Shown: positions 8,545-53,169, numbered from the stretch's first letter. The stretch: DNA of 62,281 nt from Candidatus Zixiibacteriota bacterium (GCA_016867335.1 VGJU01000002.1:1-62281), one strand, 5' to 3'. Made by a program: numbers and translations. The notes: a model not told the origin generated them from the sequence alone.

Positions 8545-9618
8545 CTACGCTCCCACCGCCTTTCCGGTGGCCGGATCGAACAGCCTCAGATGTGCGGGAT
8601 CGGGGCGTAGCGCTATGGAAGCGCCGGGAGGGAGCGCCGCTGTCGTATTGGCAAGCGCGACCACACGCCCCCACCCCGTATCGGCATACACATACCGGCG
8701 TGCGCCCAGATATTCGGTCAGCACCACCGTCCCGGTCAGCGGCCCGTCGTCCTTTACCAAAAGATATTCGGGGCGTATCCCCCAGGTAACCGCCCCGCGC
8801 ACCCCCTCGGCAAACGCGGGAAACGCAAGCCGCGTGCCGCCCGGCCCCGCCAAAAACCGTTCTCCCCCTTCTTCGATCAGCGCGCCGTCCATCAGATTCA
8901 TCCCCGGACTTCCCACAAAATGGGCGACAAACAGATCGGCAGGACGTTCGTACACCTCCTCCGGTTCCCCCATCTGGCGAATTTCTCCGTCGCGCACCAC
9001 AACGATGCGGTCGGCCAGCGCCATCGCCTCTTCCTGATCGTGCGTCACATAAAAAGTGGTGACGTGTGTCTCCGACTGTTGTTCGCGGATAAACTCGCGC
9101 AGAACCAGCCGCAGACCGGCGTCGAGCGTGCCGATCGGTTCATCCATCAGATAGAGCCGAGGCCGACGCACCATCGCACGCGCCAAGGCGACGCGCTGTT
9201 GGTCACCCCCACTCAGTTGTCCCGGGAACAGATCGAGCAACGCCTCCAGCCCTGTCTGACGCGCGATGGCATGTACCCGCGCGCGACATTCCTCTTTGCC
9301 GATACCTGCGTTTTCAAGCGGAAATGCGATGTTGGCGGCGACGGTCAGATGTGGATACAGTGCATAAAACTGAAACACGAACCCCACGTCGCGCTGTCCC
9401 GGACGAAGCAGGACGATGTCGTTCCCTTCGAGCAGGATACGCCCCGCCGTAGGGGTTTCGAGACCGGCGATCATGCGCAGTGTCGTGGTCTTGCCGCATC
9501 CCGAAGGGCCGAGCAGAACGATAAACTCGCCCTCGTTCGCGTCTATGTCTACGCCTTTTACCGCGTGAGTTCCGTCCGCATACGTTTTACGGAGACCTTC
9601 GATTTGGAGAAAGGACAT
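8545..9618 (-). CDS. Sugar (CUT1) ABC transporter ATP-binding protein
   Basis: Walker A GPSGCGKTT, LSGGDQQRVALARA, MDEP, HDQEEA, and a TOBE-like C-terminus. Confidence 0.93.
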   Translation of the reverse strand: MSFLQIEGLRKTYADGTHAVKGVDIDANEGEFIVLLGPSGCGKTTTLRMIAGLETPTAGRILLEGNDIVLLRPGQRDVGFVFQFYALYPHLTVAANIAFPLENAGIGKEECRARVHAIARQTGLEALLDLFPGQLSGGDQQRVALARAMVRRPRLYLMDEPIGTLDAGLRLVLREFIREQQSETHVTTFYVTHDQEEAMALADRIVVVRDGEIRQMGEPEEVYERPADLFVAHFVGSPGMNLMDGALIEEGGERFLAGPGGTRLAFPAFAEGVRGAVTWGIRPEYLLVKDDGPLTGTVVLTEYLGARRYVYADTGWGRVVALANTTAALPPGASIALRPDPAHLRLFDPATGKAVGA

Positions 9619-9683
9619 GGGGAAGGGGGAAGTTTAAAGGGTGAAGGGTGAAAAAAACGATAGGCCGTTTCAGGGTTGTGGGA

Positions 9684-9851
9684 CTATGGCTCGCGTCCCG
9701 ACCGGGCGTGCGAAGTATAGATGTGCAAGACGGTAAACGCCAACGCGCCTAAAAAACCGACGCGAAAACCGTCTGCCCACCAAGGTTGAAGCATTACGGC
9801 CACGCTGGCGATCATACCCGTAAGGGCGAGACGGTCGAGGGTGCGGATCAT
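9684..9851 (-). CDS. Small two-TM membrane protein (55 aa) in the ABC operon
   Basis: MIRTLDRLALTGMIASVAVMLQPWWADGFRVGFLGALAFTVLHIYTSH... Its ATG overlaps the permease stop (TAATG). Confidence 0.75.
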   Translation of the reverse strand: MIRTLDRLALTGMIASVAVMLQPWWADGFRVGFLGALAFTVLHIYTSHARSGREP

Positions 9852-10705
9852 TACTGTTTTATGGTTCCGAAGGTGACACCCCGCAGCAGGTGACGGCGGA
9901 CGAGTACCGTAAAGATGACGATGGGGGTCACGAAAACCAGCACCCCGGCGGCGATCTGCGGCCACGGAACCCCTTGTATGTTGCCCTGAAGCCCGGCAAA
10001 ATAAACGGGGACGGTAACGGCGTGGGCATTGTTGAGGGTCAGCGCAAAAGCGTATTCGTTCCATGCGGAGATGAGACAGAACACGCCTGTGACCGCCATA
10101 CCGGTACGCACCCTTGTCAGGATAATCACGCGGAAAATGTGCAGATGCGTGTATCCGTCGACCAGTGCCGCTTCTTCGTAGGCTTTTGGAATTTCGTCGA
10201 TAAACCCTTTCATCAGCCATACCGCCAGCGACAGGTTGAATGCGGTATACAGGAGGATAAGTCCTGCGTGGGTATTTTGGATTTCCAATTGGCGGTACAT
10301 GAGCAAAATCGGGGCGACAACCGCCAGCGGGGGCAGAAAGCGTGTGGAAAGGATAAAAAACAGCCAATCGTTTGCGCCGGCGATGCGAAACCGGCTAAAC
10401 CCGTAGGCGCAGGCCGTGCCGAGCGCGATGGCGGCTGCCGTGCTCAAAAGACCGACGATCGCGCTGTCGAGGAGATAGGCGTAAAACGACTGGTTGGAGC
10501 CGGTCAGCGGAACCGACAGTGTGGCGTAAGCCTCTCCGGTTACGGCAAACGAAGCGTCTTCGGAAGCGGACAGCGCCGGAACGAATCTGGGTTGGGTGCT
10601 GACGGCATCCGAACGGGGTTTGACCGAGGTGAGACCGAGCCACAGCAACGGGAGCATGGCCAAGGTGAGGTAGCAGGCGATAAAGACGAAGCGCAGGGGT
10701 TTCAT
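9851..10705 (-). CDS. Carbohydrate ABC transporter permease (MalG-like)
   Basis: Six hydrophobic segments and EAA loop IPKAYEEAALVDG. Confidence 0.92.
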   Translation of the reverse strand: MKPLRFVFIACYLTLAMLPLLWLGLTSVKPRSDAVSTQPRFVPALSASEDASFAVTGEAYATLSVPLTGSNQSFYAYLLDSAIVGLLSTAAAIALGTACAYGFSRFRIAGANDWLFFILSTRFLPPLAVVAPILLMYRQLEIQNTHAGLILLYTAFNLSLAVWLMKGFIDEIPKAYEEAALVDGYTHLHIFRVIILTRVRTGMAVTGVFCLISAWNEYAFALTLNNAHAVTVPVYFAGLQGNIQGVPWPQIAAGVLVFVTPIVIFTVLVRRHLLRGVTFGTIKQ

Positions 10706-11607
10706 GTCGCACCGCGTCCTTGACGCCGCTGCATGGCGTCTACATAGCGAATAAAGACAGTGGCGAGCGCGACGACCGGCACGAGCACGACAAAGGCGTA
10801 GGCGCTGCCCAGCCCGATTTTGTAGTCTCGGAGCATGACCTGATAGAGCAGGGCGCTGAGTGTCTGTGTGGCGGCGTCGTTAGGGCCGGTGATGGCCATG
10901 ACGAGGTCGAACTGTTTGAGCGCGTCGGTGGCCCGAAACAGGACCGCGAGAAACAGCAGTGGCGCGCACAGCGGCAGGGTGATGCGGCGAAAAACGCGCC
11001 ATACCGAAGCGCGGTCGATTTCGGCGGCTTCGTATAGATACACGGGAATCGCCTGAAGCCCGGCCAGCGCGATAAGCGCCATAAACGGTGTCCACATCCA
11101 TACATCGACCAGCAACACCGACAGCAGTTTGAGTGCGGGATCGGTAAGCCATTGCGGCTGAACGAGTCCGAGAGCGCCGAGCGTCTGGTTGAGGATACCG
11201 TACTGTCCGTTGAGGATGAGGTTCCAGTACAGCCCCATGACGGCGGGAGAGAGCATCATGGGGATGAGGAGCAAGGTAAGGATGGCGCTTTTGCCGCGAA
11301 ATGTGCGCTGAAGTGAAAGCGCGAGGGCAAAACCGAGCGCGAGTTCGATGGTCACGGCAAGCGTCGTAAACAGCGCCGTAGTCCGCATCGCCGCGGCGTA
11401 GCGCGGGTCGGAAAACACGCGGCTATAGTGGTCGAAGCCGACAAACGTCCAAGCCCCGCCGCTCAATTCTGCGTTGGTAAAGCTGAGTACGATATTGTAA
11501 CAGAGCGGGAATACATTCATCCCGATTAGCAGAACCAAGGCGGGGGCCACAAAGCCGTATTTGAGCCGTCCGGCACTGCGTTCGGCATAGGAAACTGCTG
11601 GCTCCAT
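10702..11607 (-). CDS. Carbohydrate ABC transporter permease (MalF-like)
   Basis: EAA loop LYEAAEIDRAS, DVWMWTPF motif, multiple TM segments. Confidence 0.92.
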   Translation of the reverse strand: MEPAVSYAERSAGRLKYGFVAPALVLLIGMNVFPLCYNIVLSFTNAELSGGAWTFVGFDHYSRVFSDPRYAAAMRTTALFTTLAVTIELALGFALALSLQRTFRGKSAILTLLLIPMMLSPAVMGLYWNLILNGQYGILNQTLGALGLVQPQWLTDPALKLLSVLLVDVWMWTPFMALIALAGLQAIPVYLYEAAEIDRASVWRVFRRITLPLCAPLLFLAVLFRATDALKQFDLVMAITGPNDAATQTLSALLYQVMLRDYKIGLGSAYAFVVLVPVVALATVFIRYVDAMQRRQGRGAT

Positions 11608-11628
11608 GTCGAGGATCGTCCGTGTCAG

Positions 11629-12942
11629 CTACTGAGTGGCAGATTCTTTAAAAATCTGCGTATGTTTCTCCGCGACGGCGTTGAGCGCATCCTGCGAGGA
11701 GGCCACCCCATCGAGTGCTTCGCCGATATGTTGCTGGGCGGCGGCCAGCAGTTCGTTATACGCGGGGACATTCCAAAAATCGCGCACATGATCGAGCGAC
11801 TGCGCAAAAGCATCGTTAAACGGGGTAGCCTGACGAAATTCCGGGCTGGACAGAATCGCGGTGTCAGCGGTAAATCCGGCCTTTTTGGTGATCCACTGTT
11901 TTTGCACGTCGGTTTTCAGAAACCAGGCGATAAACTGTCTGGCGCGTTCCTGCTGTTCGGGTGAGGTTTTGGTAGAGATGCTCATCCCCTGTCCGCCGAG
12001 GCTGATAAAGCGCTGGTCACCTTGTCGGGGCACCATAAAAAACCCGACTTTATCTCCCATCTGGTCTACGATGCCGGGGAAAAAGGCAAAATAGTCCATC
12101 ATCATGGCCGTGGAGCCGTTGGTAAAAACTTCGAGCACTTGCCCATAATCCATGTTGGCTCCGCCTTGTGGGGCGAAAGGAATCAGCGACTTCATAAACT
12201 CGAGCGCGGCGAGCGCGGCGGGGCCGTTGACATTCCCTTGGGGGTCATGCGTAGCATCGTTTCCCCAACTGCCGCCAAAGGCCCACAGAAACTGCTGAAA
12301 TCCCATGACAAGCGAATCGTAGGAGCGCCCGGTCAAGATGGCGCAGCCATAACGGTTGTCGGCGGGACGCGTAAAAAATTCGGCCACCTGTTTGAATTCG
12401 TCCCAAGTGTCCGGCGGAACAAGATCGCGTCCGTATTTCTGTTTGAAGGCCGCCTGTTCGTTTGGATCGGCAAACCAGTCCTTGCGGTAGGCAAACCCGA
12501 CGGCGTCCGTCTCGCACGGAGCCGCGTAGAATTTGCCGCTTCCGGGTGGATATTCGCAGAGATAGCGCGCGGCACGCGGATGCACCTTTTTCATGTCGAT
12601 GGCGGTAGGCAGCCATGTGGTAAGGTCCACGTACAACCCTTTGGTAGCTCCGCGTCCGATCCATTGGCTGTCACCCACGACGATATCGAAGTCGGTTTTG
12701 TTGTTGCCAAAATTGAGAAACACCTGATCCTGATAATTTGCCCATGGAATCTGAAGCACCTTGACGGCGATGCCCGTTTCCTTTTCGAACTGGTTGCCAA
12801 GTTCCTGAAGTCCGTCCGCGGGCGACCATTGCGCCCACCAGACGGTCAGCGCAGGTGTTGCTTCGGGCGCTCCGCCGCAATTGATACCCAAAAACGAAAA
12901 ACCAAACACGCAAACTATCCGGTGAAAAGAACGTAGCGTCAT
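11629..12942 (-). CDS. Sugar ABC transporter substrate-binding lipoprotein
   Basis: Lipobox-like LGINC, YRKDWF and PPDTWDEF motifs of SBP family 1. First gene of the ABC cluster. Confidence 0.9.
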   Translation of the reverse strand: MTLRSFHRIVCVFGFSFLGINCGGAPEATPALTVWWAQWSPADGLQELGNQFEKETGIAVKVLQIPWANYQDQVFLNFGNNKTDFDIVVGDSQWIGRGATKGLYVDLTTWLPTAIDMKKVHPRAARYLCEYPPGSGKFYAAPCETDAVGFAYRKDWFADPNEQAAFKQKYGRDLVPPDTWDEFKQVAEFFTRPADNRYGCAILTGRSYDSLVMGFQQFLWAFGGSWGNDATHDPQGNVNGPAALAALEFMKSLIPFAPQGGANMDYGQVLEVFTNGSTAMMMDYFAFFPGIVDQMGDKVGFFMVPRQGDQRFISLGGQGMSISTKTSPEQQERARQFIAWFLKTDVQKQWITKKAGFTADTAILSSPEFRQATPFNDAFAQSLDHVRDFWNVPAYNELLAAAQQHIGEALDGVASSQDALNAVAEKHTQIFKESATQ

Positions 12943-13936: not shown

Positions 13937-14311
13937 ATGGCCTCCATACTTCTTGTAGACGACGAACCCGCTTTTCGGGATATTTTTCAAAGATACCTCG
14001 AATTTAAAGGCTATACGGTCGTCACTGCTGGAAACGGGGCGGAAGCGCTTCGGGTGTTCGAAACGCAAAGCGACCCAATCCGAATGGTCGTACTCGATCT
14101 GATTTTGCCACAAGAAGACAGCCGGGAGATCGCCGCGCAGATGAAAATGCACAACCCCGGTCTTCCGATTCTGTACGTATCCGCCAGCCGACACCATCAG
14201 GTGCTGGACAACGGCCTGCTCGACGCAAGGGATGTGTTTTTGGAGAACCCCTTTTCGCTTATCGTTCTCAAACAGACCGTCCAGCGGATTCTGGACCGGA
14301 ACCCGTCATAA
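13937..14311 (+). CDS. Stand-alone response regulator receiver domain
   Basis: ILLVDDE, VVLDLILP (phospho-Asp), LYVSA. The conserved Lys-Pro appears as Asn-Pro (FLENPF). Confidence 0.85.
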   Translation: MASILLVDDEPAFRDIFQRYLEFKGYTVVTAGNGAEALRVFETQSDPIRMVVLDLILPQEDSREIAAQMKMHNPGLPILYVSASRHHQVLDNGLLDARDVFLENPFSLIVLKQTVQRILDRNPS

Positions 14312-16536
14312 TGCCCATGGGAGCCGGTCGCCTGCTTGCCGTCTTGTGCGCGTCGAGTTTGGGCTTGGTTTTCGCCCAGACCCCCCCGGAACCCCCTCGG
14401 TCCGATGTTTTGCGCGAAGGCGACGCCGTTTTGATGGCCGACACGCTGATCGCTCGTTTTGCCGGCGCAACGGCCCCGGATGCGGAGAAACCGCCTTCGC
14501 AACAAACGACAGGGGTTCTCGGTTTCCGTTGGACACCGCAACCTCTGCGTCATCAGGGCCCCAACATTTTTGCGTCGGTGATCGACCACCCTTCTTTGCT
14601 CGCCGGAATCAGGCAACTCAAAACTGACCCCGGATGGGATCCCTACACCCCCGGTGTATCGGGCGTCGTTCCGTACGACTATCGCTACGACGCCGACGGC
14701 AACCAAAAACGTTCGCTCGCCGCCCGGTTCGACATAAGCCGTCCGCTGATACCGGGCAGTCGATGGGGTTTTGCATTCGACAGTCGGTACAGCGACGTGG
14801 CCGGACCGTTTCCCAACCAGCGTACCGCGCGTCTGGACGGTCTTTTCGACGTTTCCCGCCGGTTTGGTCGCAACGATGTACTCCAAACGACGCTGATGGG
14901 GGTGGACAGCGGATGGCACCTCAACCGGGCCAACCGCGTGTTTACGGACCGGGCGCGCTACAAGCTCGAACAGTTGAACACCTGGCGCACGGGCACCACC
15001 GGTATCGAGGCCTCATACCGACGCGTGCCGAAACAAGGAAGGGCGTTTGTCCTCTCAGGTCGGTATATTGCGGACGACTGGAGCAGTGATCCGCCCGATC
15101 CTTCCCGTATGCGATTTCCCTCCGCAGGCGACAAACTTCCGAAAGATACCCCCCTGCCGCCCGGAACCGTTCCCGAAAGTCGGCGCTATGTCGGCGGTGT
15201 TTTTCCGGTGGTGACCACAACGGTCGCCGCTGAAAAACGACGCATCCGGTCGTGGGAACTTGCCGGAGAAATGCGGTTCGACACCGGGCGATATCGAGTG
15301 ACGATCGGGGCAGACGCGCGGTTTGATCGGTCGGCGACTCAGCGTCACTGGCAGACGCTTACGGTGTTGGACCGCTACCGGGTGTCTGCCGGAACAAACG
15401 AGTTTGGTCTATACGCCGATACCCGTTTTCGCTGGCTCGCCATGGTCATGGCCGCAGGACTTCGATACGAATTTTACCGACCCATGACCGTGTCATGGAG
15501 CGACCTGTACCGCTCCTATGCCGACGATCGGGTGGGTCGGGAAAACATCCATCGCTTGCTGACCGGTTTTGAAGGCGCACCGATACAAAACCTCCATTTG
15601 CTCAGTCCGCATTTTTACGTGTCGTTTCCCACGCCCAAGTTTCACGCCTATCTGACATTTGGCGCACACACACGCATCCCTTCGGTTCAAGAAAGATATC
15701 GGGATCAGACGACCACACCCTTTACCGACGGCACTACGCCCCGTCTGACACCGCGACGGTCGTAAACGGCGGAGACGGGTATCTGTTTTGTTCAACATGC
15801 GTGGACGCTGGACATGGCGCTGTTTTACCGTGATGTTGAACGGTTTCTCCCGCGTTTCGGGCCCGACGTGCTCCCCCAGCGCGTTTCGAACTATGCCGGT
15901 GTATGGGGCCGAATCGACGGCGGTTTTCGGCGACAGCGCGGTGCCGAAATCCATTTGAACCGCCGTTAGCCACACACGCAGAAAAGCGGCGTGCGGATTA
16001 CCGGCAGACTGTTATATCTCTATCTTTTTAACCCGGCGCGTCCGCTTCGACGAGATTTTGCAGTCACGCCTGCCGCACCCGTCACCTTGACCGATTTGAC
16101 GGTCTTCGACCCACAAATCGACTCTTTTTGGAACCGGCGGCACTATATTGCTTTGTCGTCGTCGATTCGGTTTGCTTCGGGACTTACCCTGACCGGTGTC
16201 GGACATGTTCATAGCGGAGCTCCCTACCGGCGGTTGCCCGCGGAACCCCTGGGTCTGCCCGTTCCCCATACACAGCCCGAAACGCTCTCCTATGGGCCTT
16301 ACAGGCGACAGATTGACGCCCGGATTGATCTGCCGATTCGTCCGACAGAAGGGCGGCTCGGTTTTATCGTGTTTGCAGAGGGCCGGAATCTGACCAACGA
16401 ACACAACGTCGAAACGGTGGCCGACCCCGACGCCCTGCGGCGAAGCGGAGCGCCCGACCATCCGGCGATCCCGCAGACCCAGCGAGTATACGGCCCGGCG
16501 CGGAGCGTATGGACGGGGGTGGAGGTGCGATGGTAA
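14311..16536 (+). pseudogene. TonB-dependent-receptor-like outer-membrane barrel interrupted by two in-frame stops
   Basis: ORFs 14311-15765 and 15991-16536 are in one frame. The gap translates as S*TAETGICFV..WTLDMALFYRDVE..GAEIHLNRR*PHT (TAA 15763, TAG 15967). Signal peptide present; TBDR-like end GRNLTN...YGPARSVWTGVEVRW. Confidence 0.7.
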
Positions 16537-17450
16537 CCTCCTTTTTGTTTTTTCTGCCCGCGGGTCTATTTTTTCTTTTTTGGCTGACGGCGACGGCACT
16601 AACCGGCTGTAATAACATACGTCCCGAACAGCGATACGGATCGGTGATCGACGACAGTCGGATTCTGTCGGTGGCGCTGTATTTTCGCAGCAGTGACCCC
16701 GACGTTCCGCCCGATACGCTTTTGGTTCGACGTTTCCACTACTTTGTCCGCCCGTCTCCATGGGAGGTGACCACATCGGGAACCAATCGTCCCATAACCG
16801 TATTCGAAGAAATGGCCGTATATGCGTTGACAATCCGGGGGTTGGCCCGTCTGGCTCGGCTCCCCCGCTATCATGGCGACGGAGACACCCGTCTCGTCCA
16901 GGTCGTCGTGCGCCCACAGGTGCCGATTCCGTTCGGTCTTGACGTCAAACCGCGTTTTCTTGTGTATGTAGAAGGAGGGCCGATTTACGGCGGTATCGAT
17001 CTTGACGGTGACCTTTCGCCTGAAAATACAGTGGAGCGTTCGCTTTCGCTGATGGCGGACGGCCATGTCAATCGCGCCGATCTCGCGCTTGACGGCGAAT
17101 CGATCGTGTTTATCGATCAAAATCGGCGAGTATTTGCTTTTCCGAAAGGCGCGGCTTTGCCGGCGATAGTAGCCGACCTGTACGACCGAACCGCTGCGTG
17201 GGCTGTAAAGGGGATTCGGTGGGGCGGTTCTTCACTCGACACCGCACTGCTTCTCGTGGATCGCGGTATCGGTGGCGACGGGGTCTACCGACTCGACGTA
17301 AACACCGGCGGTTTTGGTTTTGTCGGCGGCAACCCGTCCTCACCTACCAATGTAACCGACTCGGTGTTGCTGGATGCGATAGAACGCCGATCCCGCGGTT
17401 TTTCGTACGCCGACTGGCGGGTTCCCGACCCAGAAACGTTTGCAGAGTGA
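16530..17450 (+). CDS. Hypothetical lipoprotein
   Basis: Hydrophobic N-terminus with lipobox LTGC. Overlaps the end of the barrel gene; GGAGGT ribosome-binding site. Confidence 0.65.
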   Translation: MVTSFLFFLPAGLFFLFWLTATALTGCNNIRPEQRYGSVIDDSRILSVALYFRSSDPDVPPDTLLVRRFHYFVRPSPWEVTTSGTNRPITVFEEMAVYALTIRGLARLARLPRYHGDGDTRLVQVVVRPQVPIPFGLDVKPRFLVYVEGGPIYGGIDLDGDLSPENTVERSLSLMADGHVNRADLALDGESIVFIDQNRRVFAFPKGAALPAIVADLYDRTAAWAVKGIRWGGSSLDTALLLVDRGIGGDGVYRLDVNTGGFGFVGGNPSSPTNVTDSVLLDAIERRSRGFSYADWRVPDPETFAE

Positions 17451-17559
17451 TACCCATCGTCAATGGACAATGATTATAGACATAATCTCTTGCTTCGAAA
17501 CGAGTTGCGAACCTCTCCCCCGAGGCACAGAGTAGATTGTATTCCGAGGCGAAGCCAAA

Positions 17560-17587
17560 GACGAGTCGGTTACAACCCGTGTTGGAC
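17560..17587 (-). mobile_element. Left half of an attC site (R''/L'') downstream of apt; right half not recognisable
   Basis: Minus strand GTCCAAC-ACGG-GTTGTAAC-CGAC begins 16 nt after the apt stop. GTCCAAC is near-complementary to the GTTGGGC upstream of apt. Confidence 0.6.
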
Positions 17588-17603
17588 TGCCCCAGTTTTT
17601 CAC

Positions 17604-18125
17604 TCACCTGTCGGTCTCTTGCATGTCGAACCATACCGCTTGGCACTTGTACTTCTCCCGCAACCGCACAGATAGCGGGTTGGTGTCCATGTTGATTGTC
17701 ACGATCCCGGCCACAATGCCCCCTGCGTTTTCAATCAAGTCAATGGCCGCCTGCATTTGCGCGCCCGTTTCGATCCATTCATCCACGATCAGCACAGACT
17801 CGGCTTTGCGCACACTCACCTTGCGTAGTTCGAGGCTCTTGGTCTGTCCAGTGTAATCCACAAACTGAGCGGTGGTGGCGGCCACGGGTAATTTTCCCGC
17901 TTTGCGAATGGGCAGGAAGCCTTTCCGGAGATGTAAGGCTATCGCAGTACCCAGAATGAATCCCAAGGCATCAATTCCGGCCACATAGTCAATCGGGGTT
18001 GATCGGAAGGGGTCAGCCAAGTCGGCGACCAGCTGAGCAAACGCGGCGGGATCAGCAAACACGGGGGTCACATCGCAGCGTGGGCCGGGGGTCTGGGTAT
18101 CAATGAGACACATGTAATCTTTCAT
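17604..18125 (-). CDS. apt: Adenine phosphoribosyltransferase, apparently an integron cassette
   Basis: DVTPVFADP, VAGIDALGFILG, IRKAGKLP, and PRPP loop VLIVDEWIETG. Confidence 0.85.
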   Translation of the reverse strand: MKDYMCLIDTQTPGPRCDVTPVFADPAAFAQLVADLADPFRSTPIDYVAGIDALGFILGTAIALHLRKGFLPIRKAGKLPVAATTAQFVDYTGQTKSLELRKVSVRKAESVLIVDEWIETGAQMQAAIDLIENAGGIVAGIVTINMDTNPLSVRLREKYKCQAVWFDMQETDR

Positions 18126-18171
18126 GTTGAGATCCGATGAACGCGATGATGTGGTTGCTCTATTGCAGGCA

Positions 18172-18229
18172 GCCCAACGTCGGGTTCAGCTGCGTCGCGT
18201 AGCCGCGTCGGCTGTCACCTGTATCAGAT
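18172..18229 (-). mobile_element. attC recombination site (58 bp, degenerate R'')
   Basis: Minus strand ATCTGAT-ACA-GGTGACAGC-CGACGCGGCTACGCGACGCA-GCTGAACC-CGAC-GTTGGGC. Imperfect palindrome ending in GTTRRRY, lying between two co-oriented genes. Confidence 0.75.
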
Positions 18230-18254
18230 GCCCTGTGTGCATGTTTGACCGACG

Positions 18255-19160
18255 TCACGCACCGGCTCCTGTGCCTGCTCGCAGCACGGCTCCGATGTAC
18301 GTGTCTTTGTCTTCGTCTTGGAACACTATGTGCCGCATGGTCATTTGATCCTTCTCGATGCCCCACTGCTTGCGCATCACGTGCGAGGGCGTGTTCGAGA
18401 CGATAAAGGACTTGAGAACGACGTTCGAGTCGCCGAGTCGTTGCTCGATCTCCTTGACGGTCTCGTAAAAGCCGTTCTTCGGGTCCTGCAGGCCCACGTT
18501 TCGAATGCCCTTGGGATCGACGAAGGCGACGCGCTGGCGCTCAGCCGCGAGCTGCCAGACGATGAAGTCCGGATGAAAGTTCCCGGCCTCGAAGAACCCG
18601 ACACCGCGGCCCTTGCTCAGGTTGCGCAGGAGGTACAGCTCGCGCTCCGCGAAGAAGGCAGGATTGGCGTCGTGGAACGCCTTGAGGTCTTCCACGAACC
18701 GCCTCTCGCCCTTGTTGAGGGGGGCGGGGGAGATCTCGACGATGCCGCCATCGAGGAAGAGCAAGGGCTGATAGAGGTGCCGCCCGAAGCAGATGGCCTT
18801 GATGCCGCGAAACCCCCAGGGCTTCAGGTCCCCGTCTTCGATCGCGACCTTTAGCTCATTCAGCTTCTGGACGATCTCCTGCTGGGACTCCTCGATCAGG
18901 ATCCGGTAGCAGTACTCGGGGGCGGTCTCGCGCACGACGCACGGGAAGTTGGGGTCGTCTTCGCCGATGTCCCGGTACTCGAGGTGCGGTAGTTCCCACT
19001 CGGGCTTGCGAAAGCTGTAGTAGCGCTCCACGTACTTGCGCAGCAGCGCCTGCGCCACTTCCTGCCAGACGCGCACCTTCTCGAACGAGTCGAAGGCCAG
19101 TTCCGAGTCCGGGATCAACAGCCGGTACCACGTTGTCTCCCCGAGCAGATCGGCGATGCC
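18255..19160 (-). pseudogene. C-terminal fragment of a type III restriction enzyme Res subunit (nuclease end)
   Basis: [46 protein letters not shown]...FVDPKG (PD-(D/E)xK-like). No helicase N-terminus. Codon usage is more GC3-rich than in neighbouring genes. Confidence 0.75.
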
Positions 19161-19201
19161 TTATCTGAGAAGATGTCAGTGAATCTCATCGTTTTCCTGT
19201 G

Positions 19202-19281
19202 GCCGAACTACTGTTTATATCGCGGCGTTTTCCGTTCAACACGCCGTTTGGGACGGCTATACAGCGAAAGTTCTGTCTAAC
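19202..19281 (-). mobile_element. attI-like site of a decayed integron
   Basis: Minus strand GTTAGAC...GTTGAAC...ATATAAAC-AGTA-GTTCGGC, then AGGA and an ATG at 19189. The AAAC-N4-GTT spacing resembles attI simple sites. Confidence 0.6.
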
Positions 19282-19535
19282 GTATCCGATCCGGGGTGTT
19301 TTGCGGCGAGACCACTGTCTGAATCTACCGTTCTAACGGTTTAACAAGCGTGGGCACAGACAAAACACCCGAAATAGCCGTTAAACCAATCGGACAGGTT
19401 ATGTAGCGAAACCCGCTATCTAAACCGCTACGAGCAGCCTGACCGGCCGTCTGTAAATAGGGAGGTTATCAAAGTGCTGAGGGAATAGACTATGCTTAAA
19501 AATACCACTTTTTTCCAAAATAACAAGCCGGTTTT

Positions 19536-19620
19536 TCAGACCCACCCCCGAAATAGCCGGATCAAGGTCGTTAGGTCATGCGGTTGAAACATGGCTCGCA
19601 ACGGACGGAAGACGTCTATG
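19536..19620 (+). pseudogene. intI: Remnant of the integron integrase N-terminus
   Basis: Translates SDPPPK*PDQGR*VMRLKHGSQRTEDVY, matching the IntI N-terminal pattern PKLLDQVRxxMRLKHYSxRTExxY. Divergent from the attI and cassettes; the rest of the gene is absent. Confidence 0.7.
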
Positions 19621-19678
19621 GGCATGGAGGGCAAACGCTCCCTACGCTTTCACGGCACGCGTCATCCTGTCCAAAAAA

Positions 19679-20761
19679 TCAGGGAACGCTTTTTGCCGAG
19701 CCATCGCTCCGCGTTCCGACATACCATACCATCGTGCGATCGGGCGTTAGACACGGATACACCGTATCACCTGGATGCGCGGCAAAAGCTTTGGAAACCA
19801 GCAGTCGGATTTCCATTCCCGCAAAGGCGACCACCAGAATCCTTTCGGGGCCGGCATGTTCGACGACCCGCACGATCCCCGGCGCAGAACCACCCACCGG
19901 AGCCACATCCTCCGGGCGGATACCGACGACCGCGTTTGCGCCCGATGGCGCATCTCCTGCGAGTACCCAAGTCCCGTTGTACGCTTCCCATCCGTTTGCG
20001 CCGGACCGAACCGGAATCAGGTTGATCGGGGGATGACCGAGTTGCCGTGCCACTGCAGGGGATACGGGACGCCGATATACCGCTTCGGGGGTTCCGGTCT
20101 GGAGGATACGCCCGTTGTCGAGCACCACGATACGGTCGGCCATGGACATGGCTTCCACTTGATCGTGCGTCACATAGAGCATGGGAACGCCAAGTGCGCG
20201 GTGCAGGGCAACCAGTTCGACCCGCAACGACTCGCGGAGTTTTGCGTCGAGATTGGTAAGCGGTTCGTCCATCAGAAACAGGCGGGGCCGACGCACGATG
20301 GCACGCCCGATGGCGACGCGCTGCATCTCTCCGCCGGACAGGCGGGGCGTGGGGCGGTCCAGCAGATACTCGATTTTAAGCAGATCGGCGGCCCATGCGA
20401 TACGTTCCGTGATCTCCGTCTCGGAAAAACGACGACCCGGCGCACGCAACGGAAAGACCAGATTTTCACGGACGGTCCAGTCGGGATACAACGAGAAGTT
20501 TTGAAACACAAGAGCCACGTCTCGGTGGGCAGGAGGCCAAGAAACGACCGACGTCTCGCCGAAAAGGATGTCGCCCGTGTCCGGCGTCTCCAGTCCGGCG
20601 ACGGTACGCAACAAGGTGGTTTTTCCTGCGCCGGTCGGTCCCAGAATCACGACCAGTTCGTCGGCGCCGACCGAAAGATCGACGTCCGAGAGCGCCACAG
20701 TTTTGCCAAAACGTTTGGAGACGCCCGCCAGACGCAGGGCAGGTACAGAAGAGACGCTCAT
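19679..20761 (-). CDS. Sugar ABC transporter ATP-binding protein (orphan second ATPase)
   Basis: GPTGAGKTT, LSGGEMQRVAIGRA, MDEPLTNLDAKLR, HDQVEA. Confidence 0.92.
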   Translation of the reverse strand: MSVSSVPALRLAGVSKRFGKTVALSDVDLSVGADELVVILGPTGAGKTTLLRTVAGLETPDTGDILFGETSVVSWPPAHRDVALVFQNFSLYPDWTVRENLVFPLRAPGRRFSETEITERIAWAADLLKIEYLLDRPTPRLSGGEMQRVAIGRAIVRRPRLFLMDEPLTNLDAKLRESLRVELVALHRALGVPMLYVTHDQVEAMSMADRIVVLDNGRILQTGTPEAVYRRPVSPAVARQLGHPPINLIPVRSGANGWEAYNGTWVLAGDAPSGANAVVGIRPEDVAPVGGSAPGIVRVVEHAGPERILVVAFAGMEIRLLVSKAFAAHPGDTVYPCLTPDRTMVWYVGTRSDGSAKSVP

Positions 20762-21054
20762 ATCACCCCAGTCGTTTTTTTCGGTCTCACGCCACCCCCT
20801 CCAACCACCCCCTCGGAAATGGAGTCCGGTCCCGAAAAGGCGAACATACAAAAGTCGATCGATACAGGCAAGGGGTTATAAGATGGGGATTTTGCGCTGC
20901 CATGCGGGATAAAATCCTCCGCCCGAGGCAATTTTTTGTTGCCCTGCCCCTCCCTCCTGTATAGTATGATGTGTAGTACGCGACAGGACGCTCCACGTCC
21001 CGGCCGCGTCCATCCCCGCCCTGTCCACGCTACCGTCTGAAGAGGTTCCCTCCC

Positions 21055-24000: not shown

Positions 24001-24621
24001 GACGTAGTGGTAGGGGGTATCGTAATCGAAATCAAACCCATCGTAGACCGCAAAGGTAAGTCAATGGCCTTTGTGACTATCGAAGACTTTTCCGGAACAG
24101 GCGAGGTATTGGTGTTTTCGGATCAGTACGAACTGCACCGGACGCTTGTGGCGACGGATTCGTTGATTTTGGTGCGGGGACAGATTTCGGCCAAAGAGGG
24201 CGAAAAAAAGGTCGTCGCCTCCGAGATCATGTCGCTCGAAGATGCGCGCAACCGGTTGGCACGCGCCGTGCATCTTACCGTTGCGCCCGACCAAACCACC
24301 GACGCGATGATACAGACGCTCCAAGAGACGTTTCGGACCTATCCCGGTGAATGCGAGGTGTTTTTTCATGTGCGTACGGAAGAGTACGGCGATGTGCGTA
24401 TCCGGGCGGGGGAAGGGATTCGCGTAACTCCGGCGCGGGAATTGTTGCACTGTGTCCGGGAGACGCTGGGACCGGACCGCGCCCGTATCGCCGGCGGCTC
24501 GCTACGTTCTTCCGACAGCGGCTGGTCCGTCACCGGAAATGGCGGCAATGGCAACGGACATGGGCGTTTCCGTCAGGGTGGCGGCAGGATCGAAGGACGA
24601 AATGCACGCACCGAAGCATAA
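21055..24621 (+). CDS. dnaE: DNA polymerase III alpha subunit
   Basis: PHP domain HLHTHTHYSLLDG, catalytic SMPDIDID, KMDFLGL, YAFNKSHS, and a C-terminal OB fold. Confidence 0.98.
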   Translation: MPTFVHLHTHTHYSLLDGANRIGDLAETAKAYDMPALAMTDHGNLFGAIEFYKTVKSTGLKPIIGSELYVAAGSRKEKRPPRAGDRADQTTHFLLLAQNATGYRNLMKLSSSGYLEGFYYRPRVDMELLEAHSEGLIALSACAKGIVANHVVGDQMDMAKEKVKKLREIFDGRFYLEVQDHGLEFDQKINNAMIDFARTFDLPLVATNDAHYLNREDAPAQDVLVCIQTGKELNDPKRLKFTTDQLYFKTAGEMAHLFGHLPGAIENTVKIAESIEFEMEFGKLKYPQFPLPAGFATLDEYLRKLAFDGLHERYRTISPELTERLEFELGVIGRMGYPGYFLIVADFVRFAREQKIPVMARGSAVGCLVAYTLGITNVDPVSYGLLFERFLNPERISMPDIDIDLEFRQREKVINYVVEKYGKDSVAQIITFGTMGAKAVIRDVGRVLGMSYAEVDHIAKLVPGDLHITLDKAMTQSAELKQINDAGGTKSQLIGYAKTLEGLARHASVHAAGVVIAPGDLTDYVPLYKPSNKEDVVTQYTGEYMEDVGLLKMDFLGLKNLSVIQDSLAMIRENTGKDLDLESVPMDDRKTFEMFAKGETAGIFQFNSPWLYDYLRRLKPSCVEDLIAMNALCRPGPLQGGMVDDFIDRRHGRKEVTYTHPILEKTLKETYGVIVYQEQAMQIARDMAGYTLGRADLLRRAISKKKPEVMAVEKKNFIEGSVKNDIDQGIAEKIFDLIEFFSGYAFNKSHSAAYGVVAYREGYLKVHYPKEFMAALLSNEMSDTDEIVTLINECRKMGVRVLPPDVNKSQKEFTVEDEAIRFGLCAIKNVGAGAVDSIIRARGEYGTFVDIYALCEHIDLRLTNKRVLESLIQAGACDTLEGDRAQMMEALDAAIDMAQTNQSDRDKGQTSLFDMGGSAPVVLHRPTLPTVPRWSPSQALALEKEVLGFYVSGHPLAEFEDELRAFTTAEIKRLDQVRDRDEDVVVGGIVIEIKPIVDRKGKSMAFVTIEDFSGTGEVLVFSDQYELHRTLVATDSLILVRGQISAKEGEKKVVASEIMSLEDARNRLARAVHLTVAPDQTTDAMIQTLQETFRTYPGECEVFFHVRTEEYGDVRIRAGEGIRVTPARELLHCVRETLGPDRARIAGGSLRSSDSGWSVTGNGGNGNGHGRFRQGGGRIEGRNARTEA

Positions 24622-42317: not shown

Positions 42318-42372
42318 GTGACCGGTCGCAGAATTCGTATCCCTTGCGAGGTATGGCAATTCGCTATGAGGT

Positions 42373-42645
42373 GCCGACTACATCGTTCTCACCCAGCGCC
42401 CCAACTACCAGGCCGAGGTCGGCAGGCGCAACGAGGTCGAGCGGGCGGGTTATATTCAGGCGAACAAGCTTCGGTTTCTCCGGCCCTATCAACTCAGTGC
42501 CATCCAGTGTCTTCAGGCGGCAGTCAGAGACGACAAGGCCCGCTTTCTGTTCGAGATGGCGACCGGAACGGGCAAGACACTCACTGCCGCAGCCGTCGTC
42601 AAGCTGTTCCTGCGCTCCGGCAACGTGTCGCGTGTCCTGTTCCTG
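42373..42645 (+). pseudogene. Fragment of a type I restriction (HsdR-like) DEAD helicase
   Basis: Own translation: NKLRFLRPYQLSAI...RFLFEMATGTGKTLTAAAVVKLFLRSGNVSRVLFL (Q motif, Walker A). No start codon; truncated. Confidence 0.8.
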
Positions 42646-42668
42646 GCGGCCGTTCTGGCGTGGCTTTT

Positions 42669-42863
42669 GCCGACCTGCCGGATCGATATGGGCGTGGCTT
42701 CGGTGTGGTCAACCTCAGCCAGATGAAGGTGTTCTACCTGGCCTGGCCAATTCTGCAGACACCGTCTGCGGAATTCCTCCTCACCGGTCTCGCCGCGGGG
42801 TTCCCATTTCCCTGGTCGGCCTATGTGCGCCTGCTGGAGGTGAAGGATGCACACGCACGAGCC
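42669..42863 (+). pseudogene. Fragment of a YhcG/DUF1016 N-terminal domain
   Basis: DLPDRYGRGFGVVNLSQMKVFYLAWPILQTPSAE...FPWSAYVRLLEVKD..AR. Confidence 0.75.
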
Positions 42864-43001
42864 TTGGATCTGCAGAAGGAGATCGTGGCGGAGATCAAGG
42901 GCTACGAAGAAGAGATCAGGAATTACGAATTGCAAATTAAGAATTGCCGAGACAAAATTGCTAAGGCGGTAAACAAGGTATGGGAAATCGGTGAAGAGTG
43001 A
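42864..43001 (+). pseudogene. C-terminal coiled-coil fragment of a type I R-M specificity (or M-S) subunit
   Basis: LDLQKEIVAEIKGY...DKIAKAVNKVW resembles the HsdS conserved helix. Confidence 0.55.
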
Positions 43002-43375
43002 AAACGTCATCCAGACAAAAAGCTATGCCTTTGCGGTACGGATCGTGAAGCTCTATCCGCACTTGGCAGTGGAAAAGAAAGAATATGTTTTGTCCAGACA
43101 GGTTCTGAAGAGTGGAACCAGCATCGGAGCCAATGTTGAAGAAGCCATCGGGGGACAATCCCGGTCCGACTTCCTTTCCAAGTTATCTATCGCCTACAAG
43201 GATGCACGGGAAACCTCCTATTGGCTCCGCCTGCTCAGGGACACGGACTACCTTACCTCCTCCCAGTTTGAGAGTATTCATACAGAGGCCGAAGAACTTT
43301 GCCGCATTATCTCAGCCATCCAAAAATCCACCAAGAGGAAGCAAATGGATCATTCGTAATTTCAAATTCGTAATT
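42921..43375. repeat. 24-bp imperfect inverted repeats built of AATTxxx heptamers, flanking the four-helix-bundle gene
   Basis: 42921-42944 is AATTACGAATTGCAAATTAAGAAT. The reverse complement of 43352-43375 is AATTACGAATTTGAAATTACGAAT (21/24 identical). Confidence 0.85.
42991..43359 (+). CDS. Four-helix-bundle protein (23S rRNA IVS protein / Avd-like family)
   Basis: KSYAFAVRIV, LSRQVLKSGTSIGANVEEA, DFLSKLSIAYK.ARETSYWLRLL. Confidence 0.9.
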   Translation: MKSENVIQTKSYAFAVRIVKLYPHLAVEKKEYVLSRQVLKSGTSIGANVEEAIGGQSRSDFLSKLSIAYKDARETSYWLRLLRDTDYLTSSQFESIHTEAEELCRIISAIQKSTKRKQMDHS

Positions 43376-49347: not shown

Positions 49348-52300
49348 TCATATCCCCGGCACGCGGCCCGCATAACCGGTCAGTTCGACATATCCTAGGC
49401 CGCGTACGGGATTTCCTTGGTCCTTTCCTTCTACTTTTACACTCCCTTCCCAGTACACCACGCCGATCAGACTACCCGTGCCGAGTTCCTGGTTTTTTAC
49501 CGTCGGTGTCACGGTCAGTTCCATCCCTTCCGACGGCACACGCACCGTCCACCCGGAAGGGTATGCGGCGCGGGTGTACGGACTTTCCCATGTTCCGGTC
49601 GGCGCGATCTCGAAACCGCTACGATCCAGATGCCGCCATGACCCGTCCGTGTCCACGACCGTACCGCTCGACACCGGTTCGTATGTCCCGTCTTTGCGCC
49701 GCATGAGATACAGCATGAGTTCGCGCCGGTTGTCCAACTGTATACTAAACCAGTCCCACCCCTGTTGTTGCGGCGTAAGCTGATTCGATCCGAATTCGTG
49801 GTCCATCCACGAAAGCCCGGTTACGGGGATTTTTTTGTCGTTCAGGGTCAGTGTTCCCGAAGTCGCCATGCGTGTCAGCGAATAGTAATGCGAGGCACGA
49901 CCCTCCCCTTCGGCTTTCCGGCTTACGCCGTCATGTCCGTGGATTACGGGGGGTTTTTCGGGTTTGAGATCAAGCGAGATCGTTGCCATGGCGGAGGATG
50001 CTTCCAACCGGTGTGTGGTGCTGTCCGTGAGACCGGCGGACCAGTCGCCGATCCAGACGCGGTAGCGGTCCTCCAGCGCCCCGGCCATGTCGAGCGCGGG
50101 GCGGGCGATGTTTTCGGTATGATAAAATCGGTTGCCGTTTTGGTCTGTCACGGCAAAATGCGCAAAATATAGGGTGTGGAGCGCCCACCGCGAGGGGCTG
50201 GCGCGCCGCGCCGGGTTGATACCCACCTGAAAAAAAGTCAGTTCGTATCCAAACGAGCGCCCGTCACCGAAAAGGTGACCGGTATAATACCACCATTCGG
50301 TACGAAATTCGGGATGGCTTGCGTGGTCGCGCGGAAAGACGAACGTGTAGGGCGCTACCGCGAGCCGGTATCCGGAGGCATCGGTCTGCGCGGACGCCGG
50401 TGCGGTCAGTCCCAACAACACCGCGAGGACGACAAGTTCAAGTCGCATCGCTTCCGCTGCCGCGCGTTTGAGGGCCCGTCGGGCAGGCGCAAGCCCGGCC
50501 AACAGGGCCGTCGCCACCATGATCGCAAACGCCTGAACAAATATCCCCGGTGCTACATACATACGGATGCTCCATCCGAAAAATTGTTTGTTGATCACAT
50601 AAATGAGCAGAACGGCAAGGGCGACGCCGCACAGACTGCCCATGACCGCTCCAAGCATTCCGATCAGCCCGCTTTCGACCAGCACCATCTTTCTTATTTG
50701 CGTTTTGAACGCGCCGGTGGCCCGTAATACGCCGATTTCGCGTCCCCGCTGAAGAATGAGCGCTGTCAGCGTGGTGATCACCCCCAGCGCCGCCACCACG
50801 ATGGCGATGGCCTGAAGCGCGTAGGTGATGCGAAACGTCTGATCGAATACGGTCAGTGCCTGACGTCGTATTTCCTGATTGGGGGTGATGTGCAACATGA
50901 TCCGGTCGTCTACGGCGGTCAGCAGGCGTTGTCGCACTTCGTCGGGATGCGCGTCCGGCGATAGATACAGCGCCATGCTTTCGGCGCGCGAGGTCTGCCA
51001 GAGCCGTCCGAAAAGCCGACGGTCCATCAAGATGCTTCCTGCGTCGGTGTTGTAGTCGTAGTATACGCCGACGATGGGGAGCCGGACTCGGCCTGTCGGT
51101 GGATAGAGCGTGACCGAATCGCCCGTATCTACGCGGTGGCGATAGGCAAAACTTTCGGTAACGGCCACCCCGTCACGTGCTATGGCTTCGCCGAGCACGT
51201 CGGTGGAGGCTTTTCCGTCCATAAACCGGAGTCTGCCATGTTGGCGGTGTACGTCCAAGTCGAGCGCCATGACATAGGCAAAGCGATCACCGTATGAAAT
51301 GCGGGCGCCCCGGTAGGTATCCACCGCCGCTACACCCGGAAGACGAGCCGCCGCGACCGGGATATCTTCGGGCAGGGCGGTCGTCCCGCCGTTGGCACGG
51401 CGTCCCACAGGCTGTACATACAGGTCGCCCCGGATCGACTGGGTGATCCAAAGATCTACGGTCTGACGAAAACTTCCTACCATGATGGACATGCCAACCA
51501 TCATGCCGACTGCCGTCATCAGCGCGGCGGCGGCGATGCTCGTGCGGGCTACGGCCTCACGGAGATACCGCGCGCCAAGACGACCTTCCACGCCGGTAAA
51601 ACGGGTCAGAAGCCGGTCCGCCACTCGTTCGCAGACGACTGTAAAGGCGGGGGCGAGCAAAGAAAAACCACCGAGCGTCAGAAAGGCGCTGACAAAACCA
51701 CCCCACGGACTGTGTCGACCGAGCGTCCACACGGCGACAAGCGCCGCTGCAAACAGGATACCCGCGCCCGCGGCGGTCCATCGCGCTACCCGAACGGTCA
51801 TGACTTCGAGGAGTATCCCCTGCCGGACTGTAAGCGCGGGCGCGGTGCGCGACGCTTCGATCGCCGGGGCCAGTGCCGCCGCAAGCGAAACCAGTACGCC
51901 AAGCGCCAGCCCGATGCCATAGGTAAGCGCGTCGTAGTGGAGCGTGGAGGCGTGCGCCACTAAATAGAGCGTTGTCAACGTCTGCGACACGGCACGCAGC
52001 GAACCCTGTGCCATCAGCGTGCCAAGACCCAGACCGATAAGACTCCCCGCAACGCCTATGACAAAGGCTTCTCCGAGAAACAGAAACAACACCTGTCGCC
52101 GTGTCACCCCAATGCTGCGAAGCAGACCGATCTCGCGCCGACGCCGAAGCACGGACATCGCCACCGCGTTGAATACCAGAAAGATAGATACAAACAGCGC
52201 GATGGCCGACAGGGCCGTCAGGCTCAACGCAAACGCCGAGACCATGTTCTCCACCTGACGGGTGCGGTTTTGCGGCGATCCGACACTCGCTTGCGGGGGC

Positions 52301-53040
52301 AACAAGGGGCGGAGCCGCTCCGTTACCGCCTGCCGCTGGAGCGGATCGACCCGCAGATCGATACGGTCCAGTTTGCCCGAACGTCCGAAAACCTCCTGCG
52401 CCGCGCCGATGTCCATCAGCGCCACATTGCCGCCCAGCGCATGCTGGAGTTCGTCGGATTCGAGGATATAACGGACGGTCAGCGGGATGGGCCTGCCGGT
52501 GGACAGTACGGTAAGCGTGTCGCCCGTGTTTAAACGATGCCGTTCCGACAGGGTGCGTGTGATGGCAACGCCGGTGGGGTCGGCGAGAAAAGCGAGGAGC
52601 GCGGCGGGATTTTGCGCGTTCGCCGCCCCCGTGTACCGGGCAAACGGAGCTTCGAGCAACACGTCGATCCCCATGACGAGCAGAGTTTCACGGTAGGGAC
52701 CTGCTTCGTCGTCCGTCCTGTCGGTCGGCGGTGGGGGCGAACCGGGACGGGCGCGCACATACGTCTGTACCACCGGCGCGGCGGCGGTGACACCCGATGT
52801 GCGCCGGACACTCGGGAAGATAGTTTCGTCAAACCCTTCGCTGTCGGCGACGATCTGGAGGTTGGCCGAGCCGGCGATGGCGTCTACGGTATCCGAAAAC
52901 GAAGCCATCGCCGACGTGTTGGCGAGACGCACGCTGACAAACACCGCCACGCCGATGGCAACACCGGCAAGCGTAAGCAGGGCGCGGCCCCGATCCTGAA
53001 ACAGATGTCGGAAGGTTATCCAGTGAAAGAGATGGGACAT
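49348..53040 (-). CDS. MacB/FtsX-type ABC permease (AttF/G-like) fused to an AttH-like lipocalin/CrtC-like domain
   Basis: Two FtsX halves (RRREIGLLRSIG and RGREIGVLRATG) ending AEAMRLE, then in frame FPRDHASHP..TEWWYYTGHL, WMDHEF, GWDWFSIQLD, YWEG, GYVELTGY. Confidence 0.88.
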   Translation of the reverse strand: MSHLFHWITFRHLFQDRGRALLTLAGVAIGVAVFVSVRLANTSAMASFSDTVDAIAGSANLQIVADSEGFDETIFPSVRRTSGVTAAAPVVQTYVRARPGSPPPPTDRTDDEAGPYRETLLVMGIDVLLEAPFARYTGAANAQNPAALLAFLADPTGVAITRTLSERHRLNTGDTLTVLSTGRPIPLTVRYILESDELQHALGGNVALMDIGAAQEVFGRSGKLDRIDLRVDPLQRQAVTERLRPLLPPQASVGSPQNRTRQVENMVSAFALSLTALSAIALFVSIFLVFNAVAMSVLRRRREIGLLRSIGVTRRQVLFLFLGEAFVIGVAGSLIGLGLGTLMAQGSLRAVSQTLTTLYLVAHASTLHYDALTYGIGLALGVLVSLAAALAPAIEASRTAPALTVRQGILLEVMTVRVARWTAAGAGILFAAALVAVWTLGRHSPWGGFVSAFLTLGGFSLLAPAFTVVCERVADRLLTRFTGVEGRLGARYLREAVARTSIAAAALMTAVGMMVGMSIMVGSFRQTVDLWITQSIRGDLYVQPVGRRANGGTTALPEDIPVAAARLPGVAAVDTYRGARISYGDRFAYVMALDLDVHRQHGRLRFMDGKASTDVLGEAIARDGVAVTESFAYRHRVDTGDSVTLYPPTGRVRLPIVGVYYDYNTDAGSILMDRRLFGRLWQTSRAESMALYLSPDAHPDEVRQRLLTAVDDRIMLHITPNQEIRRQALTVFDQTFRITYALQAIAIVVAALGVITTLTALILQRGREIGVLRATGAFKTQIRKMVLVESGLIGMLGAVMGSLCGVALAVLLIYVINKQFFGWSIRMYVAPGIFVQAFAIMVATALLAGLAPARRALKRAAAEAMRLELVVLAVLLGLTAPASAQTDASGYRLAVAPYTFVFPRDHASHPEFRTEWWYYTGHLFGDGRSFGYELTFFQVGINPARRASPSRWALHTLYFAHFAVTDQNGNRFYHTENIARPALDMAGALEDRYRVWIGDWSAGLTDSTTHRLEASSAMATISLDLKPEKPPVIHGHDGVSRKAEGEGRASHYYSLTRMATSGTLTLNDKKIPVTGLSWMDHEFGSNQLTPQQQGWDWFSIQLDNRRELMLYLMRRKDGTYEPVSSGTVVDTDGSWRHLDRSGFEIAPTGTWESPYTRAAYPSGWTVRVPSEGMELTVTPTVKNQELGTGSLIGVVYWEGSVKVEGKDQGNPVRGLGYVELTGYAGRVPGI

Positions 53041-53169
53041 AAAATGAAGTTTGAAGGTTGAAGAGCGAAGCAGAGGCAGACTGCCGCGTGTGCCGATCCG
53101 GTGGTCAGCTTGCGAAATGAACAGAACAGCGAGTGCATACCTTGCAGCAAGCTGCAAGAGCAACTACTT

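Follow-up and report, generated by a model that had tools for sequence, protein, structure and literature searches.

A locus that may once have been a small chromosomal integron, now decayed, with an integrase-like stub and a truncated type III restriction gene

Can a chromosomal integron still be recognised once its integrase gene has almost disappeared? The question is raised by a 62,281-nucleotide stretch of DNA (the window) from a bacterium labelled Candidatus Zixiibacteriota (GCA_016867335.1 VGJU01000002.1:1-62281), in which an earlier note, made from the sequence alone, had read positions 17560-19620 as a fossil integron: a nearly vanished integrase gene (intI) and, facing the other way, an attI-like recombination site and a frozen array of a type III restriction enzyme (Res) fragment and an apt gene with their attC sites. 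All strings quoted in that note are found in the sequence at the positions it gave. Our analysis reveals an N-terminal remnant of an integron-integrase-like tyrosine recombinase gene and the truncated 3' part of a foreign res gene on the opposite strand. Furthermore, we give slightly better than an even chance to the reading that a small chromosomal integron decayed here, leaving a locus that is functionless now, with apt as its native flank.

We analyzed the integrase-like stretch with IntI1 of plasmid R100 (L081:14476-15489) as the tblastn query against the entire 62-kb window, a wider form of a check that the earlier note had called for. The peptide at issue, encoded on the plus strand at 19536-19620, reads SDPPPK*PDQGR*VMRLKHGSQRTEDVY, with in-frame TAG stops at 19554-19556 and 19572-19574. 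The best two high-scoring segment pairs (HSPs) in the window were 19560-19625 and 19642-19836, which are colinear and were linked by BLAST with a joint E of 0.001; the next-best match had E=0.3. The first HSP corresponds to IntI1 residues 18-39 at 50% identity and runs across a TAG, and the second opens with LRFHGTRHP against IRFHGVRHP at IntI1 residues 45-53, showing that the integrase likeness resumes past a frameshift, at 19642-19668, a stretch that had been overlooked. The two HSPs lie in adjacent frames, with 22 nt between them against 7 codons in IntI1, and therefore a one-base frameshift lies between 19620 and 19642. In dinucleotide-preserving shuffles of the window, E<=0.001 was reached in 3 of 866 and E<=0.01 in 20 of 866, an empirical tail of about 0.4%. 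These results support the proposal that the peptide corresponds to the N-terminus of IntI, and the recombinase may well have been a true IntI.

A read-through translation (P0151), in which X stands for each of the two TAGs and for the frameshift, matched only two of 18,950 NCBIfam models, both of them named integron integrase (NF011946, E=2.6e-4, positions 17-54; TIGR02249, E=0.14). In Pfam the sole family was PF13495 (E=0.039, profile positions 6-40 of 85), and BLASTP against IntI1 gave 44.3 bits in a single comparison for which the frame had been chosen beforehand. An N-terminal SAM-like domain of the IntI type is thus present, recognised weakly and with scores far under the curated cut-offs. 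Like IntI1, the remnant has residues 15-54, aligned at about 48% identity and including RTE..Y and RFHG.RHP; unlike IntI1, it has nothing past about residue 55, including the catalytic domain and the IntI-specific insertion. The window held no trace of the catalytic domain (PF00589) or of the IntI-specific C-terminal domain, and IntI1 beyond residue ~55 gave nothing better there than E=0.3. The integrase likeness stops near 19675, only a few bases short of 19679, where the neighbouring ABC transporter gene has its stop codon, and upstream of the remnant the frame is full of stops and the start codon is unrecognisable. The unmended fragments, searched separately, had no Pfam or NCBIfam match at E<=10 and no PDB match; the only PDB matches to the read-through were AgrA chains at E~0.5, which were set aside as irrelevant. 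When longer proteins were searched by word index for nearer relatives of the stub (residues 8-54), seven candidates came up, none at E<=10. The earlier note was right that nearly all of the integrase gene has been deleted (~45 codons are left and the catalytic half is absent), that gene callers would miss what remains, with its two stops and one frameshift, and that intI diverges from the minus-strand open reading frames (ORFs): the remnant lies on the plus strand, and on its 5' side the minus strand carries the res fragment, the attC-like site and apt.

The features of the locus and its flanks, from left to right, are these:
Ending at 17450, plus strand: an ORF of 313 amino acids (aa), the flank to the left of apt.
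17561-17587, minus strand: an R''-like GTCCAAC (17587 to 17581), a hairpin (17580 to 17561) and a T-rich tail.
17604-18125, minus strand (18125 to 17604): apt, an intact gene for an apt-like phosphoribosyltransferase of 173 aa (PF00156, E=7.7e-9, above cut-off); then a 129-bp spacer.
18172-18229, minus strand: a degenerate attC-like element, with an L''-loop-L' hairpin (18214 to 18187), AAC, a 5-nt spacer and an R' box GTTGGGC (18178 to 18172).
18255-19118, minus strand (19118 to 18255): a 287-aa ORF that encodes the C-terminal region of a type III restriction enzyme.
18255-19175, minus strand: the 3' part of the res gene, about its last 300 codons (protein search, PADLOC and tblastn).
19187-19198, minus strand: a sequence like a ribosome-binding site, AGGAAA (19193-19198), and an ATG at 19189 (sequence and ORF list).
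19190-19678: about 490 bp with no credible ORF, between the 287-aa ORF and the ABC ATPase gene.
19190-19556: a non-coding, AT-richer spacer (49-52% GC), the presumed promoter/attI region, with a cluster of GTTA-type motifs and short direct and inverted repeats.
19202-19220, minus strand: the string that the earlier note called attI-like, ATATAAAC-AGTA-GTTCGGC; reverse-complemented, these positions read ATATAAACAGTAGTTCGGC.
19275-19345, minus strand: the putative attI motifs CGTTAGAC (19282 to 19275) and CGTTAGAA (19339 to 19332), the latter abutted by GTTAAAC (19345 to 19339).
19557-19675, plus strand: what is left, about 45 codons, of the N-terminal end of a tyrosine recombinase gene like those for integron integrases (tblastn, NCBIfam and Pfam).
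19679-20851, minus strand: a MalK-type ABC ATPase gene (PF00005, E=1.3e-30; TOBE_2 at residues 309-375), the right-hand flank.
Beyond the ABC ATPase gene, plus strand: dnaE.

The gene facing away from the integrase remnant is both truncated and foreign. In a representative-protein search the 287-aa ORF matched the final ~285 residues of proteins of ~1050-1100 aa, with 1268 representatives at E<=0.001; the best of these (P0001, 1091 aa) was 76% identical, with query residues 1-284 aligned to residues 804-1087. The PADLOC profile REase_III was matched by full-length res relatives at E~1e-212 and by the 287-aa ORF at E=8.1e-37, over profile positions 842-1125 of 1154, and in four of the five relatives scanned ResIII/DEAD domains lay near residues ~145-320, the fifth being a 526-aa partial protein. 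By tblastn, residues 790-1090 of P0001 map on 19160-18258, and stops interrupt the res frame at 19176-19178 and 19161-19163. The Res fragment of the earlier note is thus confirmed as the last ~300 codons of an enzyme of ~1090 aa. It is like type III Res over that C-terminal section, up to the end of the 1091-aa protein, and unlike it in that the helicase part (~790 codons) and the mod gene are missing, the helicase domain having no counterpart in the window; lacking both a helicase/ATPase part and a mod partner, the fragment cannot work as a restriction enzyme. The AGGAAA and the ATG at 19189 that had been proposed to start this gene are present, but the ATG opens a frame of 24 codons to a stop, out of the res frame, and the two res-frame stops lie upstream of the res ORF. 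Moreover, the G+C content at third codon positions (GC3) of the fragment is 0.86, against 0.50-0.73 for the 46 other ORFs of the window. The fragment is therefore recently acquired foreign DNA, and this composition fits acquired cargo.

We next consider the site between res and apt, which the earlier note had read as a 58-bp attC. The reference set consisted of 13 attC sites of class 1 cassettes delimited in plasmids; an automatic search for R''/R' pairs recovered the aadA type only and a looser version 7 of 15 regions, and the rest were delimited by eye. Two home-made covariance models (CMs) were used: R1, restricted to six attC sites because the long sites came out misaligned when 12 attCs were aligned with MAFFT, and R2, built from ten sites aligned by R1. 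Among held-out sites R2 recovered ereA (33.2 bits), arr-2 (24.9) and arr-3 (17.9) and missed dfrA14 at E<=1 (one of four). Over the full window with filters off, R1 gave 14 matches at E<=10, of which the top one was 18187-18214 on the minus strand (14.1 bits, E=0.23, model positions 17-44 only), and R2 gave 7 matches with the same top site (13.1 bits, E=0.52); the top window match of a sequence-only nhmmer profile ran from 18214 to 18175 (model positions 17-57, E=0.2). Hence three attC models each put their best window match in the res-apt spacer, on the minus strand. Over 94 kb from four relatives, the best R2 match scored 11.8 bits.

The element at 18172-18229 resembles the 3' two-thirds of an aadA-type attC; its R'' position reads ATCTGAT and the R'' box is not recognisable. 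Folding of this strand gave z values of -1.9 and -1.5, with 10 of 200 and 14 of 200 shuffles as stable, and no closing R''/R' stem was formed, while the aadA1 attC of R100 folds canonically under the same test. Further weak CM matches (19339-19386, 19518-19576 and 19714-19752 on the plus strand and 24422-24450 on the minus strand; E 0.65-9) were rejected as noise, and Rfam at E<=10 over 16500-20500 returned noise only and no attC family. Thus the proposed attC stands as the best attC-like match of the window, on the predicted strand and by three models, but it is partial and non-significant and has no R''. We regard it as a putative, degenerate attC.

The spacer between the integrase remnant and the res fragment shows a local excess of core-type motifs. 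CGTTARR occurs 15 times in the window, against 25.6 in shuffles, and 5 of these occurrences lie within 19276-19751, as do all three CGTTAGA sites of the window, two of them at 19276-19338. None of 5000 local shuffles of 19190-19760 reached five CGTTARR, and the motif GTTRRRY, which was defined a priori, was found 6 times there compared to 1.39 in local shuffles, with 18 of 5000 reaching 6. The CGTTARR at 19745-19751 is probably due to chance, because in the ABC gene it falls among the codons for the TOBE domain. With a weight matrix for the 3' half-site (L'+R'), the top three of 124,472 positions were 19296, 18192 and 19351, all on the minus strand and between the integrase remnant and apt; the attI candidates rank first and third and 18172-18229 second. 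Held-out real attCs scored 11.0-16.5 bits for the 5' half and 5.7-17.2 bits for the 3' half, a range that includes the scores of the 3'-half sites of this locus, and at 80 other loci equally high scores arose at 54 (5' half) and 50 (3' half) per 3.05 M positions. Nearly all of the attI candidates' score is due to the R' box, at 12.4 bits each. Taken one by one, the attC-like and attI-like strings amount to no more than chance.

attI sequences are specific to each integrase class. On the cassette strand, the putative sites CGTTAGAC and CGTTAGAA are better attI candidates than the string at 19202-19220. This string is present, but it is not supported as a site because its GTTCGGC is not GTTRRRY, and it had no match with any of the attC models (R1, R2 or nhmmer). 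The spacer also holds a 16-nt direct repeat, ACACCCGAAATAGCCG and ACCCCCGAAATAGCCG, 94% identical, at 19365-19380 and 19544-19559 (179 bp apart), with a second copy that extends over the beginning of the integrase-like stretch, and a perfect 10-bp inverted repeat at 19294-19303 and 19361-19370.

Taken at their lowest value, these likenesses might all be accidents of ordinary intergenic DNA, apart from the res pseudogene. Every integrase match is under the curated cut-offs, and the BLAST E-values are somewhat liberal, as the 20 of 866 shuffles at E<=0.01 indicate. Set against this are the empirical tail of the integrase match, the two colinear, N-terminal HSPs with IntI1-like spacing, and the agreement of an independent motif cluster, and we consider an accident on this scale very improbable indeed. 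Restriction systems commonly travel on islands, and a more substantial alternative is that a tyrosine recombinase with a SAM_4-type N-terminus arrived together with a type III restriction-modification system on some other mobile or defence island, that both were mostly deleted and that the attC likeness is fortuitous. The foreign composition of res, the absence of a significant attC and the fact that only the N-terminal SAM-like domain (PF13495) is visible all suit such an island; it is harder to reconcile with the finding that the only NCBIfam models matched are the two for integron integrases and that the best attC-like matches and the core-motif cluster adjoin the remnant on the expected strand, and no further island genes were found in the window. 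We regard this origin as unlikely, though it deserves to be taken seriously.

Whether the apt gene was itself a cassette bears on a different alternative. The gene at 17604-18125 is present as the earlier note stated and resembles adenine phosphoribosyltransferase; the NCBIfam apt models gave the 173-aa ORF 108 bits, under their cut-offs of 125-243, and Apt activity is a prediction. Its GC3 of 0.66 falls within the range shown by the window genes. Downstream of it, the matrix for the 5' half-site (R''+L'') ranked the site at 17587 on the minus strand third of 124,472 positions, with 11.0 of its 13.3 bits due to the R'' 8-mer GTCCAACA. The half attC that had been placed at 17560-17603 survives as the motif GTCCAAC (17581-17587, minus strand), but it is mostly an 8-mer beside a terminator-like hairpin, and it had no match with the R1 or R2 CM or the nhmmer profile. 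Scans for promoters and terminators found no more than in shuffles. Because of its native composition and the lack of a credible attC of its own, apt is most likely a native chromosomal flank and not a cassette, and its earlier assignment as a cassette is doubtful. A frozen array of two cassettes (attI at 19202-19220, the res fragment with the 58-bp attC, and apt with a half attC) would account for an attC-like match upstream and an R''+L''-like half-site downstream of apt, in the right order and on the right strand, with half-site ranks of 2 and 3 of 124,472; it is at odds with the native GC3 of apt, with a downstream half-site that owes its score to one 8-mer, coincides with a terminator-like hairpin and is seen by neither CM nor nhmmer, with an attI core that departs from GTTRRRY and with an ATG that is out of the res frame. 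We therefore hold a two-cassette array to be improbable.

The locus lies in an ordinary, Gemmatimonadota-like chromosome, with genes that include a purL-like gene, sigma-70, secA, a sugar ABC transporter, dnaE and transketolase. A DnaE scan of genome contigs gave 80 loci, of which 16 (L001-L016) are relatives: the DnaE of the window is 66-74% identical to that of 16 metagenome-assembled genomes labelled Gemmatimonadota or similar. None of these 16 dnaE neighbourhoods had apt, the res fragment or the 313-aa, 181-aa or 484-aa neighbours, and the ABC ATPase had a match in only two of them, elsewhere in their locus. Thus gene order is poorly conserved in this lineage. Near the locus, the MalK-type ATPase gene at 19679-20851 stands alone, without permease or binding-protein genes; 7 kb away (8545-12942, minus strand) is a complete sugar ABC operon, which has an ATPase of its own. 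The 484- and 181-aa ORFs (14311-15765 and 15991-16536, plus strand) are consecutive, 225 bp apart and without a Pfam match, and may be one split gene. Further off, a 227-aa ORF (42318-43001, plus strand) has a weak, partial match to the DUF1016 N-terminal domain (E=8.7e-9, no stretch passing alone) and overlaps the next ORF, of 122 aa (42991-43359, plus strand); it may be another broken gene. An unusual 1271-aa protein (49348-53163, minus strand) has FtsX/MacB-type permease domains fused to CrtC and lipocalin-like domains.

A decayed integron is the reading that fits best, because of the integrase stub, its divergent orientation, the adjoining motif cluster and the place and strand of the best attC-like matches. 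In such a history, an integron-type tyrosine recombinase gene would formerly have read rightwards from ~19540, with the promoter/attI region (19190-19556) to its left and cargo inserted on the opposite strand. One deletion would have taken all but the first ~45 integrase codons, up to the end of the ABC ATPase gene, and the surviving stub would later have picked up two stops as well as a frameshift. Another deletion, placed after the first only provisionally, may have taken out the greater part of the cargo, so that the last ~300 res codons and the degenerate attC remained beside the native apt gene. A bolder version has a Gemmatimonadota-like chromosomal integron that once carried a whole type III restriction-modification system, with the integrase itself causing the deletions through recombination of attI with secondary GTT sites and the open 300-codon res tail persisting because the former cassette promoter still drives its expression, as a C-terminal domain protein that stands alone; we consider this very unlikely.

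Several points weigh against the locus being a decayed integron. The IntI-specific and catalytic domains are gone, so the hallmark of an integron integrase is not visible; the family matches are far under their cut-offs (20.3 versus 435 bits and 14.8 versus 27 bits), and the read-through frames were picked once the similarity had been seen. No attC is significant, the best covering model positions 17-44 at E 0.23-0.52 without a hairpin closed by R'' and R', and the attC models rest on only 6 and 10 class 1 cassette sites. The half-site weight matrices and the CGTTARR pattern were devised after the region had been inspected, and, since one CGTTARR of the five falls in conserved coding sequence of the ABC gene, such matches do arise by chance. 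Furthermore, normal cassettes do not consist of a 3' gene fragment, and because the relatives show no synteny comparative support is lacking.

Dead integrons are already well known, and this locus is a known kind of element. As described in a study of Xanthomonas chromosomal integrons (PMC12444791), inactivation of intI by stops, frameshifts and large deletions is documented; the present locus is like those integrons in having an integrase gene wrecked by stops, a frameshift and a large deletion and, in a frozen arrangement, opposite-strand cargo next to a housekeeping gene, and unlike them in that ~45 intI codons, at most one degenerate attC and a truncated cargo gene are left, in a Gemmatimonadota-like lineage without a comparative series. 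Clusters of attC sites without an integron-integrase are termed CALIN and require at least two attC sites, according to Cury et al. 2016 (PMC4889954), where 15 of 279 CALIN lie within 10 kb of an intI pseudogene and single attC sites are discarded as possible false positives. Our locus is like a CALIN, as defined there, in being a recombination-site remnant without a working integrase, and unlike it in that at least two attC sites by CM are required there and none is significant here with home-made models (PMC4889954). Neither R1 nor R2 found a second attC site in the whole window, and the CALIN-like array proposed earlier, for which at least two are needed, is not supported. Our literature searches found nothing pertinent on integrons in Gemmatimonadota/Gemmatimonadetes, and we make no claim to a first report.

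The integrase stub is the solid part of this finding; for attC-like or attI-like strings, chosen singly by eye, a model and a control are needed. Our understanding of integrons is unchanged by the locus. If the reading as a decayed integron is true, the known examples of integron erosion would grow by one, in a poorly sampled lineage, and intI stubs of very small size, which escape gene callers and screens with C-terminal profiles, could flag former integron loci.

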